A program made the translations under genes and the position numbers. From the NCBI GenBank assembly GCA_963977055.1, contig CAXBMX010000019.1:28504-92503 (forward strand): DNA of 64,000 nt. The letters run 5' to 3'. Shown piece after piece: positions 7,657 to 28,930 of the stretch (the stretch's first letter is position 1; each line of letters opens with the position of its first letter). This DNA is from an uncultured Verrucomicrobiales bacterium. Lineage in GTDB: Bacteria > Verrucomicrobiota > Verrucomicrobiia > Verrucomicrobiales > DEV007. Below the pieces are notes generated by a model. The model was not told where the DNA came from and did not search any database. It worked only from the letters and a program-made list of their open reading frames with translations.

Positions 7657-8583
7657 ATGCCCTCTCTCGAAGAACGCCTTTCTCTTTCCACCTGCTGGTG
7701 CTCCCACCGACACACGGATGGTTACCACATGCTTACGGAAATTCGGGAACTGGGATTTCACCAAACTGAACTCAGCCACGGCATTCGCATGTCATTGGTA
7801 CCGGGAATTATCAAGGCCATCGATGAAGAAATCATCGAGGTATCCTCGGTTCACAATTTCTGCCCGCTTCCTGCCTCGGTCCAACATGCAGCGCCCAATC
7901 TGTTTCAGCCCTCAGTCAAAGGCGGCACTGAATTGGTCATGTGGATGCAATATTCGCAGCAGACCATCGACTTCGCTGTTCGAGTCGGAGCGAAAAAGAT
8001 CGTCATGCACTCTGGCAGCATGAGCTTCCGCTTTGGTTCACCGGGACCTGTTCTCGACGTCCTCGACCCCACTGAAGAAGAGCTCTCCTCGGATGCTCGG
8101 AAGAAGGCTCTGGCCAAGCTCAGGAAAAGGGCCTCAAAGAACACTAAGACCGTCATCGCCAACTATCAGACGCTTGGTCCGTCAGCCGCCGCCCAGGGAA
8201 TTCAACTCGGGGCTGAAAATCGCGAAGGATTGCTCGAGCTTCCTCTCGACGAAGAATTCCCCGAATTCCTTAAACAATTCGATGTGGCTGGCCCGGTCCA
8301 ATATTGGCACGACACCGGCCATGCCCAAATCAAACATAGGCAGGGCCTGCTCGATCACCGCACCCACCTCGAAGCCGTCGCGGATCGCCTCATCGGATTT
8401 CACCTCCATGATGTCAGTGAAACAGGCAAAGACCATCAAGTCCCTGGCACCGGAACGATTGATTTCAAAATGGTTGGAGAGTTTATAAGGCCCGAGCACA
8501 CCCTCATCGCCGAATTGAGCCCAAAGCTCACCAGGGATCAGGTGATTCAGTCACGAGCGTATCTTCTGGAGAATCTAGCCTAA
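7657..8583 (+). CDS. Sugar-phosphate isomerase/epimerase-like TIM-barrel protein (AP endonuclease 2 / xylose isomerase-like fold)
   Basis: Metal-ligand-type motifs GAENRE, WHDTGHA, GFHLHD, HQVPGTGTIDF, IAELSP. Confidence 0.8.
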   Translation: MPSLEERLSLSTCWCSHRHTDGYHMLTEIRELGFHQTELSHGIRMSLVPGIIKAIDEEIIEVSSVHNFCPLPASVQHAAPNLFQPSVKGGTELVMWMQYSQQTIDFAVRVGAKKIVMHSGSMSFRFGSPGPVLDVLDPTEEELSSDARKKALAKLRKRASKNTKTVIANYQTLGPSAAAQGIQLGAENREGLLELPLDEEFPEFLKQFDVAGPVQYWHDTGHAQIKHRQGLLDHRTHLEAVADRLIGFHLHDVSETGKDHQVPGTGTIDFKMVGEFIRPEHTLIAELSPKLTRDQVIQSRAYLLENLA

Positions 8584-8625
8584 GAGAGCCCCTGAAAGAC
8601 TGTTGAAATATCCTGGAATGAAAAA

Positions 8626-8770
8626 GGAAGTCGCCTTGCCATTTGGCGCGGCTGGCGGGCGCTCCACGCGACGAAGAAGCAGGGTTCCCTCTACCCTGAG
8701 GAGCAACGAAGTCAGACGGTAAAAGGGCCATCACCCGAAGGGTCGACTCCATAACACTTCCGGCGAAGCC
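8626..8770 (-). ncRNA. Candidate structured small RNA, family unidentified
   Basis: Nested helices found by eye: 8626-31/8756-61, 8661-65/8700-04, 8680-85/8693-98, 8708-14/8744-50, 8715-19/8728-32. The imperfect pairs are G-U only on the minus strand. A sigma70-like promoter lies upstream and a U5 tract (8621-25) downstream on the same strand. Confidence 0.45.
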
Positions 8771-8774
8771 GCCA

Positions 8775-8803
8775 ATTGAAAGCCCCGAGAGATATTGCGT
8801 CAA
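8775..8803 (-). promoter_or_regulatory. Sigma70-like promoter for the candidate sRNA
   Basis: Minus strand TTGACG (8803-8798), 17-nt spacer, TTCAAT (8780-8775). Confidence 0.5.
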
Positions 8804-9138
8804 AAAAATGTATAAACCGCCTCCTAAGGGGCCATTCAAGAATGGCACGGTATTAAGGTAGTTGTTCGAGGGTGGGGCGTTCGTCGGGAAATTTGGCATC
8901 CTCCGCTACAAGACGCTCACGTAGCGGAACTTGCAAAAAGTTCCGATGATTGGGATTTGCGGGCCAAATTTTCTTAAACCCGGGCCATTCAATTAATAGC
9001 GAGTAGCCTCGGTGTCCTATTTTTGAGTCAACACGCCTCCTGAATTCAAAGAGGAATTTTGTTGCTTAAGACCTCCGCGAATGAAAGCCTACCGCCGAAG
9101 TATATCGTCAAGCTTGAAACATCACATGCCGCACTCTC

Positions 9139-9187
9139 CAGTGAAGGTCTTCGCCCTGAAAGCGAAACGACCGAGGGCGGTAGCGTG
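9139..9187 (+). promoter_or_regulatory. JUMPStart-like leader: hairpin followed by an ops element (RfaH/NusG-paralog recruitment site)
   Basis: CAGTG (9139-43), hairpin GGTC-TTCGC-[CCTGAAA]-GCGAA-AC-GACC (9146-72), then GGCGGTAGCGTG (9176-87), 15 nt before the ATG of the first gene of the glycan operon. Confidence 0.75.
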
Positions 9188-9202
9188 ACCTCAACCTCAA
9201 AA

Positions 9203-9841
9203 ATGCCGCAGACTTGCCCAAGATGGCTGAAACGCCTCACTTTCTTGTTATTACTCCTAGGGCTTGGCACCCTCGTTTTGGTGGCCTTTCATCGCCCAAT
9301 CTTAACTTCGCTGGCGAACGCCTGGATTGTTGACGACAGCCCCATTGATCAGGTGGATGCGCTCATCGTGCCGGGAGGAGGATTTGAAACCCGCCCCTTT
9401 GGCGCAGCCGAACTCTACCTCAAAGGGGTCTCCGATCGGATCATCACCTTTCAAACTGAAGTATCCCCCAGGGGAAAATTGGGACTGGCGAGGCCCCATC
9501 ACCAGGAAAATATCCAGATCCTGACAAAAAAGGGCGTGCCCGCCACTGCGATCACCGTGATAGGGGACCACGTCGCCAGCACTCAGGACGAAGTCAACGC
9601 AACGGCAGATTGGTGTCAAAAAAACGATATCCAGTCCATTGCTGTTTTTACTGAATACCTTGCCAGCAGACGCGCCGCCTGGGCGTTCCGAAAGCAACTT
9701 TCCGCTCAGGGCGTCACCGTGCATCTGGCCGCTCTAGAGCACCATCCATTTACGCTAAAGGAATGGTGGCTCGACGAAGATGGCGTGATCACTTTCCAAA
9801 ACGAAATCCTCAAGTATTTTTACTACCGGTTGCGTTACTGA
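9203..9841 (+). CDS. YdcF/DUF218 (ElyC/SanA-like) protein with N-terminal membrane anchor
   Basis: TM segment [50 protein letters not shown]. Start placed at ATG 9203, downstream of ops (ORF track starts 9059). Confidence 0.75.
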
Positions 9842-27330: not shown

Positions 27331-28930
27331 CCATCAGGCTCCTGGCGTTCAGCCAATCCGTCCGAAAAAGCAGCTGACTCCAGGGTCATTTGGCGCACTC
27401 GGCCTCCGACTAAGGCGCCTCTGGCATCCACTAAACTGGCTACTGTTGATGGTATGCCTCATCACATTCAGCATCGTGGCCATCAAGCCCGATTCACCTG
27501 CGTTTCCCTTTTTGATGATCACCGCCCCGTGTTTGGTCGCGCTGTTTGTGTGGTCCAGATGCTCCCTAAAATCAATCCCTTTACTCCCCTTATTCCTGAT
27601 CCAACAGGGAGTGTTATATGGCATATCCTTACTGAATTTTGATACGGGTTCGGATCGCCTCCCTCCGGCTATTATTTCTCTGGCCAGTTTGAATGTCGGG
27701 CTCTTTTTTGTTGCACTACTAATCGGGTGGAGCCTGGGAATTCACGCCATCAAGGTACCTCCGCCGACACGATGGCCACTGCTTCAGCAAAACAACAGCA
27801 GCCACATGAAGAATGCTCGCATGCTATCCATATGGCTTCTCGTCGGCTCTATTTTTTTCCAACTGCTCATTAAGTCCGGCTGGTTGCACCAACTTCTTCC
27901 TGATGGGCTGTGGAGCGTCTTCCCCCTCCTGAGAGCCTTCTCTGATGCGGCCACGATGCTGGGGGCACTGATCGGCAGCCTCACGATCCGTTTCCGCTCC
28001 GATGAATTCACCACCTGGCTGTTCTGGGGTTGTGTCATCAGCCTCTTCTTTTTCTCCGTTTCCAATTTGATCCTGGCCACAGCGACAGGGCTCATCATGG
28101 CCCTGGCCGCCGGACAGGCTTTGAAGAACCATCGCCCCCCGTGGACGTTCGCGCTAATCAGCCTGTTGATTCTGGCGTTCTTCAATCAGGGCAAAATACA
28201 GATGCGGGATAAATACTGGCCCTCCGGCTCGACGGATGTCGAAGTACATATAGGCCGTATGCCCGCTTTCTTTCAGGATTGGGCCGTCACCAGTATACAC
28301 GCACTTCCCAGTTCGTCTCAAACCAGAGACACGGCAGTCGATTCGGAAAGTAGCCAGTCCCTTCTTGAACGCATTAACAACATCAACAATCTGACTTTCG
28401 TAATCCGGGCCATTGAAGAACAGAACATCAGTCAACTCAACGGAGAAACCTACGCACTCATCCCCCCCTTGTTGGTGCCTCGGTTTCTTTGGAAAGCCAA
28501 GCCCCGGGCTCACGAAGGACAGGCGACCCTAAACCTTCACTTTCGCCGCCAGCTCACCCGGGCCGAGACGGAAAAAACCTATATTGCCTGGGGACTACTC
28601 CCTGAAGCAGTCGGCAACTTCGGGGTCTTTTTTGGGCCCCTGATTCTCGGAATTGGATTCGGGGTACTTCTCGGAGCGCTCGAAAAATACGCTTACAACA
28701 AAATACTTTTCTCCATTGAGGGCCTGATTCTGATTGGATTCTTACTAAAGTTGGCGATTTCATACGAAATGGTTGCCAGCGTATTCGTTACCACGACTTT
28801 TCAATTTATGGTGGTCATCAGTCTGGCCGGAGGGCTCATGCGCCTCTGGATGAACCGGCGCGGCGCTGCCTTCCCCCCCAAGACTCACGCGAGAACACCC
28901 CCCAGTACACCTGGACAGCGCGAGACCTAG
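27320..28930 (+). CDS. Polytopic membrane protein, Wzy (polymerase)-like, paralog 2
   Basis: Collinear with paralog 1: SIPLLP, MRDKYW, VPRFLWKAKPRAHEGQ, TYIAWGLLPEAVGNFG, FSIEGL, EMVASVF. Confidence 0.6.
   Translation: MTANHQAPGVQPIRPKKQLTPGSFGALGLRLRRLWHPLNWLLLMVCLITFSIVAIKPDSPAFPFLMITAPCLVALFVWSRCSLKSIPLLPLFLIQQGVLYGISLLNFDTGSDRLPPAIISLASLNVGLFFVALLIGWSLGIHAIKVPPPTRWPLLQQNNSSHMKNARMLSIWLLVGSIFFQLLIKSGWLHQLLPDGLWSVFPLLRAFSDAATMLGALIGSLTIRFRSDEFTTWLFWGCVISLFFFSVSNLILATATGLIMALAAGQALKNHRPPWTFALISLLILAFFNQGKIQMRDKYWPSGSTDVEVHIGRMPAFFQDWAVTSIHALPSSSQTRDTAVDSESSQSLLERINNINNLTFVIRAIEEQNISQLNGETYALIPPLLVPRFLWKAKPRAHEGQATLNLHFRRQLTRAETEKTYIAWGLLPEAVGNFGVFFGPLILGIGFGVLLGALEKYAYNKILFSIEGLILIGFLLKLAISYEMVASVFVTTTFQFMVVISLAGGLMRLWMNRRGAAFPPKTHARTPPSTPGQRET

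Follow-up and report, generated by a model that had tools for sequence, protein, structure and literature searches.

A probable MITE relic in a Verrucomicrobiales genome: a new family with a putative IS1182/IS5-like partner and a strand-specific core

Bacterial miniature inverted-repeat transposable elements (MITEs) are non-coding repeats of 70-300 bp with terminal inverted repeats (TIRs) of 15-30 bp and short target duplications; they are intergenic, often abut gene ends, form robust hairpins and are moved in trans by the transposase of an insertion sequence (IS) that recognises their TIRs (PMC3733652). Repetitive extragenic palindromes (REPs) are single hairpins of 20-40 bp that carry a GTAG/CGTC terminal tag and have neither TIRs nor target duplications (PMC3733652). 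Here we describe an intergenic element in a 64,000-nt stretch of DNA from an uncultured Verrucomicrobiales bacterium (positions 28,504 to 92,503 of contig CAXBMX010000019.1, assembly GCA_963977055.1; this whole stretch is called the window below). An initial annotation, made from the sequence alone, had read part of this element as a small RNA gene on the minus strand. Our analysis points instead to window positions 8592-8827 as an old, degenerate copy, with its fold lost, of a new MITE family that has an IS1182/IS5-like partner, and we put the probability of this explanation as a whole at about 0.85.

The element of the family is non-coding and about 228 nt long (copies of about 224-250 nt). 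Elements start with (N)TAN-GAGACTGTTGAAAAAC and finish with GTTTTTCAACAGTCTC-NTA(N), giving TIRs of 16-20 bp, and in 46 distinct copies the first and last 16 positions were Watson-Crick paired in 671 of 736 cells. The target duplications that we saw are 4 bp long (CTAG, TTAA, CTAA, CTAT and GTAA). Of 11 copies in the window's own genome, six have identical 4-bp flanks. Among these flanks are CTAA (twice), CTAT and GTAA, which are not palindromic; they therefore represent target-site duplications and not an extension of the TIRs. The hairpin stems of the interior change by compensation, which is incompatible with coding, and a 123-aa open reading frame (ORF) that spans the window copy, 8528-8899 (-), showed no Pfam match.

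Searches with BLAST, an iterated profile hidden Markov model (nhmmer) and a covariance model (CM) gave about 21 matches, of which 11 are full length, in the window's own genome. With R1, a covariance model of the 148-position core, copies were found in 38 of the 58 congeneric genomes, the number per genome varying between 0 and at least 54 (at least 54 in G024, 47 in G022, 21 each in the own genome and G066, and 18 in G043), and the core was found in one further genome among 150 sampled evenly over the phylum. G024 also has 173 matches to the 16-nt TIR end, and a large number of its contigs break off within a copy. Six copies in G041 lie at unrelated loci with unrelated flanks, bordered by CTAG or TTAA, and are near-identical exactly from TIR to TIR, with scattered single-base differences. 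Near-identity from end to end at unrelated loci is what a discrete unit leaves behind when it has transposed recently, and these copies suggest, indirectly, that the family may be mobile.

The family combines several features by which MITEs are recognised, namely small non-coding size, TIRs, target duplication, dispersed and variable copies, and an autonomous IS with matching ends and the same duplication. It shares size, TIRs, duplication and intergenic hairpins with Correia/NEMIS of Neisseria, ERIC/YPAL of enterobacteria, RUP of S. pneumoniae and Nezha of cyanobacteria. Correia, ERIC and RUP make a TA duplication, whereas the present family has a 4-bp duplication and IS1182/IS5-like ends.

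Some further observations concern individual copies. In locus L095 (G024:C78:10485-10813) the TIRs are 313 nt apart, and this is a MITE variant with about 90 extra nt, including CCCTTCGGGCAACCCTTCGGGCAACCCTGCGGG repeats, at the tip of the interior hairpin H4 (described below). Several copies lie 0-10 nt from a stop or start codon and fill the intergenic space (C42:6315-6542, C60:12309-12545, C17:19493-19669 and, in the window, 8592). The NTAN target includes TAA and TAG, and, speculatively, stop codons may act as insertion sites that are remade by the duplication. Two contig ends of the own genome, C21:94119-94169 and C22:1-51, are exact reverse complements in which the TIR GAGACTGTTGCAAAAC is followed by CTCAGGTGCAAGCGAATCAATAATTGGTAAGGTTC; they probably mark an assembly break in a long, perfectly palindromic element whose ends are the same but whose interior differs. 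We rejected the contig ends in G024 and C21/C22 as full-length ISs, since they are MITE copies cut by the assembler.

The putative autonomous partner was reached from a lone TIR end in G041. A DDE_Tnp_1 match 230 nt from this end led to a transposase ORF whose last codons lie inside the terminal repeat. This G041 copy is partial (partial copies L109/L115); intact homologs, with ORFs of 469-511 aa within elements of 1.47-1.58 kb, were found in G020, G072, G024 and G055 (L116, L117, L118, L119). Three of the four carry GAGACTGTTGAAAAAC at one or both ends, and the element in G055 has CAGCCTGTTGAAGAAC. Identical 4-bp flanks border three of the four (CTAA in G020, TTAA in G072 and TTAG in G055), the flanks of the G024 copy being TTGA and TTAG. 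The transposase contains DUF772 and DDE domains; PF05598 (DUF772, 67.5) and PF01609 (23.4) both pass their cut-offs, and the best NCBIfam model is IS1182, followed by IS5. It resembles these two families in its DUF772 and DDE domains, in TIRs starting GAG... and in an ORF that runs into the terminal repeat. The target of IS5 is YTAR (ISfinder), and the 4-bp duplications of the partner at CTAA/TTAA/TTAG-type sites resemble it. The partner would seem to work like IS1182/IS5, and it would be a distant IS1182 member at best.

Because the ends and the 4-bp duplication are common to the IS and the MITE, we infer that the MITE copies may have been moved in trans by the DDE transposase of this IS1182/IS5-like element of about 1.55 kb. 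No homolog of the partner transposase was found in the window's own genome, where the DDE genes on contig C82 are without matching ends; with no partner found there, the own-genome copies are probably stranded. We also considered an IS630/Tc1-type MITE with a TA duplication, and dropped it: DDE_3 is absent or fragmentary in the copy-rich genomes, and the non-palindromic 4-bp repeats and the IS1182-like partner give a better fit.

The window copy itself is visibly eroded. Its core scored 96 bits, compared with 104-165 bits in 21 other untruncated full-length core matches above 100 bits. The minimum free energy (MFE) of the whole element, 8592-8827, was like that of shuffled sequences (z = +0.97 on the plus strand and +0.86 on the minus strand), and its reverse-strand energy was the weakest of the 46 copies. 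The syntenic site in G018, with the same flanking genes and about 70% identical, holds a more eroded homologous stretch in the same orientation (23 bits; about 70 nt aligned at about 75% identity). Since the G018 site holds this stretch, the insertion in the window probably predates the split between the window species and G018; an independent insertion of the same subfamily could also account for it.

Next, we considered the fold of the family. Read in the window minus sense, the element consists of a TIR, the 5' arm of helix P2 (..ACGAAAAAUCU), a variable stretch, hairpin H1 (GCGGCUUCGCCG), hairpin H2 (GCCC-CUNC-GGGC), the 5' arm of helix P3, strand J1 (GCUUCGUUGCUCCUCRGUC), hairpin H4 (a variable stem with a 4-nt loop), strand J2 (CUCCYUCGUCGCGCCUCGCC), the 3' arm of P3, the 3' arm of P2 (GUUUUUCAU..) and a TIR. 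It forms a long rod, in which the TIR stem is followed by P2, by the 14-bp helix P3 and then by the J1 and J2 strands around the variable hairpin. In an alignment of 36 matches (35 distinct rows) drawn from 31 congeneric genomes, both-sided changes were seen in 22 of the 29 modelled pairs. In this set there were 152 compensatory cells, compared with 45 +/- 5 after column shuffling and 26-37 with the partners slid, and in a multi-phylum set of 58 distinct sequences there were 374, compared with 130 shuffled and 57-129 slid, with P3 paired in 90% of cells; these are counts from model-guided alignments, which are biased toward the structure of the model, and copies from the same genome are kin, so that the counts are not independent events.

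Mismatches indicated which strand folds better. On the minus-sense strand, A.C outnumbered G.U by 62:22 in the modelled pairs, over many pairs and lineages, and by 137:50 in P2. An A.C mismatch on the minus sense is a wobble on the opposite strand, which gives that strand the lower free energy. The opposite (window plus) strand was the more stable one in 42 of 46 copies (mean -108.5 versus -95.0 kcal/mol), and a young copy in G041, L061, reached -126.3 kcal/mol (z = -10.5) on the plus-sense strand versus -111.6 kcal/mol (z = -7.95) on the other. In the plus sense the complements of both strands, J2' and J1', are purine-rich, and Watson-Crick (WC) pairs alternate with four tandem G.A/A.G mismatches. 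Outward from H4, in most of the 58 distinct J1/J2 pairs, the first eight positions of J2'/J1' run A.G, G.A, WC, WC, A.G, G.A, WC, A.G, and the next eight run G.A, WC, WC, C.A, G.A, WC, A.G, G.A. Over the 58 pairs, WC, GU and GA combinations made up a fraction of 0.80 in register, compared with 0.40-0.65 after shifting. In RNA and DNA alike, tandem G.A mismatches are stable. In the same sense H1 reads GGCGAAGCC, which we take to be a GNA-type triloop. These comparisons of sequences argue that the strand under selection is the window plus strand, not the minus strand, and that the fold would be selected at the level of the element, as a transcript or as single-stranded DNA.

Three positions of P2, namely 21, 24 and 32 (about 8792-8800 and 8613-8620 in the window), hold A.C or C.A in 28-38 of the 46 copies, even though the sequence around them has changed between subfamilies; on the other strand they would be conserved G.U wobbles, and position 31 shows the opposite. 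Two readings of single motifs were given up: that UNCG/GNRA loops mark the minus strand as RNA, because the best-pairing register gives H2 loops of CUNC and not UNCG, and that CUGAGGA is a hammerhead CUGANGA box, because stem II would not fit and Rfam gives no match.

The core is not confined to the genus. Its ~80 nt comprise, in order, one arm of a stem of 12-14 bp that varies in sequence, then GCTTCGTTGCTCCTCRGTC, a hairpin that also varies, CTCCYTCGTCGCGCCTCGCC and the other arm of the stem. We scanned one genome per species for exact occurrences of TTCGTTGCTCCTCRGTC, of which about 140 would be expected by chance in 596 Gb by our own arithmetic. This gave at least 120 stretches, of which 80 were compared with R1; the model separated true copies from chance and gave 67 matches at E <= 1e-4 in these 80 listed loci. 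Singletons from isolates of unrelated taxa did not match the model, and viral contigs, taken as a negative control, gave six chance 17-mer matches and no model match. Among the matches listed, the core is multi-copy in several metagenome-assembled genomes (MAGs) of Verrucomicrobiota, and it occurs also in Myxococcales and Kofleriaceae, in Lewinellaceae, Saprospiraceae and Chitinophagales, in an Acidobacteriota MAG and in a Limnocylindria MAG. Three copies in a "delta proteobacterium" MAG lie on contigs of 2.4 and 4.0 Mb; errors of MAG binning do not explain copies on contigs of megabase size.

In Myxococcota, Bacteroidota, Acidobacteriota and Chloroflexota the core is carried by MITEs with different ends, which makes at least five phyla in all. 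The delta-proteobacterial copies are 165-nt MITEs, CTAG-CAGGGTGTTGAAAAACTC...GAGTTCTTCAACACCCTG-CTAG, with CTAG/TTAA duplications, and other types of TIR are GAGCCTGTCGGAGAAG in Lewinellaceae, GGCCTGATTCAGG in Acidobacteriota and GTACTCTGTAA-CTAAGT in Saprospiraceae. The Verrucomicrobiae MAG MFD04944 has a 275-nt MITE (ends AGAGACTGTCTGAAAAATAA) with two inverted cores 9 nt apart, present in six near-identical copies (L126, L131, L136, L152, L128, L144). J1 and J2 are nearly invariant in all of these phyla, while P3 and H4 covary. The family thus differs from known MITEs in that its interior is not a mere palindrome but a covarying helix with two near-invariant strands, both rich in purines in the same sense, and in that its core is shared with MITEs that have other TIRs. 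Literature searches by sequence words, MITE with IS1182, and MITE with Verrucomicrobia found no description of the family or of the core.

A tentative explanation, to which we give clearly less than even odds, is that the ~80-nt core is an undescribed strand-specific structured module, RNA or single-stranded DNA, built as a WC/G.A rod and carried by MITEs with unrelated ends. If this is true, the core has a function that many different non-autonomous transposons need or exploit; for example, it may recruit a host or transposase factor, or act as a regulatory RNA.

Several results weigh against a MITE family mobilised by the IS1182/IS5-like partner. Compared with IS1182, the transposase misses the curated family threshold (NF033551, 154.3 bits against a cut-off of 270), and it falls just under that of DDE_Tnp_1_6 (PF13751, 24.7 against 25.1). 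The IS contains no MITE core, and the two are unrelated beyond about 20 nt; with unrelated interiors, the link between them is one of shared ends and shared duplication. No empty site or insertion polymorphism could be demonstrated among genomes that are one per species and ~70% identical at the locus, and an exact-protein look-up of the flanking protein found no other assembly. The roughly 75% identity to the G018 stretch, compared with 70% in the flanking coding DNA, could mean that the window copy is under constraint. Finally, a DDE element needs its ends only, so that a strand-specific, covarying core found across phyla is left unexplained by the MITE model.

These last features would fit a family that is primarily a functional non-coding RNA or a single-stranded DNA signal, with the MITE ends as a vehicle and the ~80-nt core (P3, J1, H4, J2) as the payload. 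Two versions would fit: in one, a protein binds the stable G.A rod, rich in purines, of a plus-sense RNA; in the other, the opposite strand exposes unpaired CUCCUC and CUCCCUC, which could pair with Shine-Dalgarno sequences. The near-invariance of J1/J2 beside freely covarying P3 and H4 stems favours this possibility, as do the carriage of the core in Myxococcota, Bacteroidota, Acidobacteriota and Chloroflexota by MITEs whose TIRs differ, its presence twice per element in one Verrucomicrobiae MAG, the strand asymmetry in wobble versus A.C counts and in folding energy, and the regular WC/G.A pattern in register. However, the family alignment contains no conserved promoter on either strand, the copies show no orientation bias to neighbouring genes (co-directional contexts 4 versus 5, with gene orientation judged from open frames and from the G+C content of third codon positions, GC3), and there is no Rfam family. 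The numbers of 0 to at least 54 copies within one genus, with one further genome in 150 across the phylum, form the pattern of a selfish repeat and not that of a needed RNA, and decay is visible in the window copy as in many others. We therefore regard a primarily functional payload as unlikely. A family-level promoter, TTGAAA-N17-TCTAAT, was tried and rejected, as only some G024 copies have a usable -10.

Much less probable is the proposal of the initial annotation, a stand-alone small RNA (sRNA) of ~140 nt on the minus strand, possibly a divergent 6S RNA, with a sigma-70 promoter at 8803-8775 and a U-tract terminator at 8625-8621. The proposed promoter hexamers are readable, TTGACG at 8803-8798 and TTCAAT at 8780-8775 with 17 nt between them, as are all the other motifs of the initial annotation at the positions that it gives. 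However, a promoter scanner, which demands an A at -10 position 2 that TTCAAT lacks, called no sigma-70-like promoter in 8300-9400, and the hexamers are kept in no other copy: in the family alignment TTGACG sits opposite CTGAAACGCAAAA of other copies, and TTCAAT falls within the variable stretch. The closing helix, GGAAGU 8761-8756 with ACUUCC 8631-8626, likewise exists here and in no other copy. The U5 tract is present, but the terminator is absent from the other copies; in the family alignment the tract corresponds to GUUUUUC, the P2 arm whose partner GAAAAAU lies toward the opposite end of the element. A terminator scan flagged the H4 hairpin alone, no more than shuffled sequences yield. 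From the proposed three-way domain, the CUUCG hairpin (CCC-UUC-GGG, 8743-8733) survives as H2 of the family, while GGAGUCG/UGACUUC and GAUGG/CCGUC are not kept elsewhere, and from the second domain CAGGGU/ACCCUG (8698-8680) corresponds to H4, while GGAGC, the partner of GCUCC, falls inside an insertion (Table 1).

The argument from G-U wobbles, which had placed the RNA on the minus strand, holds weakly for the window copy (6 versus 4) and is reversed in the family, as described above; the minus strand of the window copy also folds about 8-10 kcal/mol better than its plus strand. However, the MFE of 8615-8775 was about that of dinucleotide shuffles (z = -0.19 on the minus strand, z = -0.13 on the plus strand), and by the yardstick of shuffled controls, which the initial annotation itself had named, this already weakened the reading as an RNA gene. 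We agree that no minus-strand coding sequence follows downstream. A search of Rfam at the gathering threshold, and another at E <= 10 over 8400-9300, left the candidate without a match, and four well-preserved family copies had none at E <= 5; the 6S families were among those searched. The family resembles 6S and other Rfam sRNAs in size (about 150-230 nt) and in a rod-like fold with internal loops, but differs from them in being multi-copy and bounded by TIRs, without a conserved promoter or Rfam match. Instead of a single-locus gene, the candidate is one of the about 21 own-genome matches to a TIR-bounded, target-duplicating repeat, and a relic of it. The initial observation is thus partly confirmed, and its interpretation is supported in part: homologs exist, their fold covaries, and the sequence descends from a nucleic-acid element with a conserved structure outside Rfam. 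The homologs are those of a MITE family better folded on the opposite strand, and the interpretation as an RNA gene, with its strand, promoter, terminator and gene identity, is not upheld.

The least probable alternative, with hardly any weight, is that the element belongs to the REP/REPIN or IS200/IS605 type and that an HUH (RAYT/TnpA) enzyme moves it in single-stranded form, as DNA, which would explain a strand-specific hairpin. Tandem G.A and GCGAAGC-type triloop motifs are stable in DNA; the strand-specific fold of the family has both on one strand, and a genuine GTAG-tagged REP lies 100 nt from the window copy, at 8921-8946. However, the element has true TIRs and a 4-bp target duplication, and to our knowledge HUH single-strand transposons (IS200/IS605) make neither. 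A DDE IS with the same ends exists as well. The family is, like the GTAG/CGTC REPs, an interspersed, strand-asymmetric hairpin repeat found in many phyla, but at about 228 bp, with TIRs and a 4-bp duplication, it falls outside the definition of a REP, and it has no GTAG/CGTC tag and is 5-10 times as long (PMC3733652).

Table 1. Parts of the MITE copy in the window and of the RNA gene proposed there, with window positions.
Feature	Position	Strand	Basis or remark
Whole MITE copy	8592-8827	family 'forward' = window minus	nhmmer and CM matches, family alignments
Target-duplication remnant	TTAG 8827-8824 versus TCAG 8595-8592		3/4 match
Left TIR, degenerate, GAGGCGGTTTATACAT	8808-8823	-	10/16 to consensus GAGACTGTTGAAAAAC
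Right TIR ATATTTCAACAGTCTT	8596-8611	-	13/16 to GTTTTTCAACAGTCTC
R1 core match, 96.1 bits	8615-8774	-	covariance model R1
Hairpin H1 GCGGCUUCGCCG (plus strand GGCGAAGCC)	8761-8772	-	sequence, family alignment
Hairpin H2 ACCC-UUC-GGGU	8733-8743	-	closing pair A-U / U-A / G-C among copies
Helix P3 5' arm UUUUACCGUCUGAC	8711-8724	-	pairs with 8634-8647; covariation
Helix P3 3' arm GCCAAAUGGCAAGG	8634-8647	-	covariation
Strand J1 TTCGTTGCTCCTCAGG	8695-8710	-	near-invariant; family consensus GCTTCGTTGCTCCTCRGTC
Hairpin H4 GUAGAG-GGAA-CCCUGC	8679-8694	-	family register; CAGGGU/ACCCUG of the initial annotation is an alternative register
Strand J2, first part TTCTTCGTCGC	8668-8678	-	resumes as GCCGCGCC at 8652-8645
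15-nt insertion GTGGAGCGCCCGCCA splitting J2	8653-8667	-	common only to L038; supplies GGAGC of the initial annotation
U tract	8621-8625	-	P2 3' arm in the family (GUUUUUC with GAAAAAU)
Proposed promoter TTGACG-N17-TTCAAT	8775-8803	-	conserved in no other copy

The window copy lies in a 475-bp gap between two plus-strand genes, a xylose-isomerase-like TIM-barrel gene (7657-8583) and a DUF218 gene (9059-9841) at the head of a sugar-nucleotide/glycan operon. Its right TIR finishes 9 nt past the stop codon (8581-8583) of the former gene. When 8560-9060 was compared by BLAST with the own genome and with 40 relatives, the gap, 8584-9058, proved to be a mosaic of at least three repeat families: the MITE copy, a GTAG REP and a third repeat. 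The copy itself most likely has no role of its own beyond that of a passively transcribed spacer between the xylose-isomerase-like gene and the glycan operon, which is led by an ops element.

The GTAG-tagged REP-like hairpin at 8921-8946, 100 nt from the MITE copy, has the minus-strand sequence TCGGAACTTTTTGCAAGTTCCGCTAC and the plus-strand sequence GTAGCGGAACTTGCAAAAAGTTCCGA; part of another unit, GTAGCGGAG, lies at about 8908-8900. The 26-nt unit was found again in many congeners, and G008:C64 and G015:C30 contain inverted REP doublets arrayed in tandem over 115-116 nt (4.7-4.8 units, 91-93% matches). The third repeat family (GCCCCACCCTCGAACAACTACCTTAATACCGTGCCATTCTTGAATGG...), at 8827-8887, adjoins the left end of the MITE copy; at least eight partial copies occur in the own genome (C15, C33 twice, C17, C55, C68, C54 and C1), and it occurs also in G018. 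A sub-threshold Rfam match to JUMPstart at 9160-9187 (+), with 21 bits against a gathering score of 35, contains GGGCGGTAGCGTG (ops), which is also present in the syntenic region of G018.

For the annotation of the window, these results mean that no new sRNA gene adjoins the glycan operon. Such repeats break MAG assemblies, as in G024, where many contigs end inside copies, and they can pass for sRNA genes, as happened here. The family goes beyond a routine MITE in that a partner IS can be identified, and it appears to have bloomed recently in some species (G041, G024) while being a fossil in others, including the window's own genome. The selection that seems to act on its interior, seen in the covariation, the strand preference, the invariant strands and the reuse of the core, is not foreseen by the view that only the ends matter in DDE-mobilised MITEs. 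If the core is a functional RNA or a single-stranded DNA signal, it would be a new and widespread motif and a handle on the persistence of MITEs. The conserved, strand-specific core of this family merits study in its own right.

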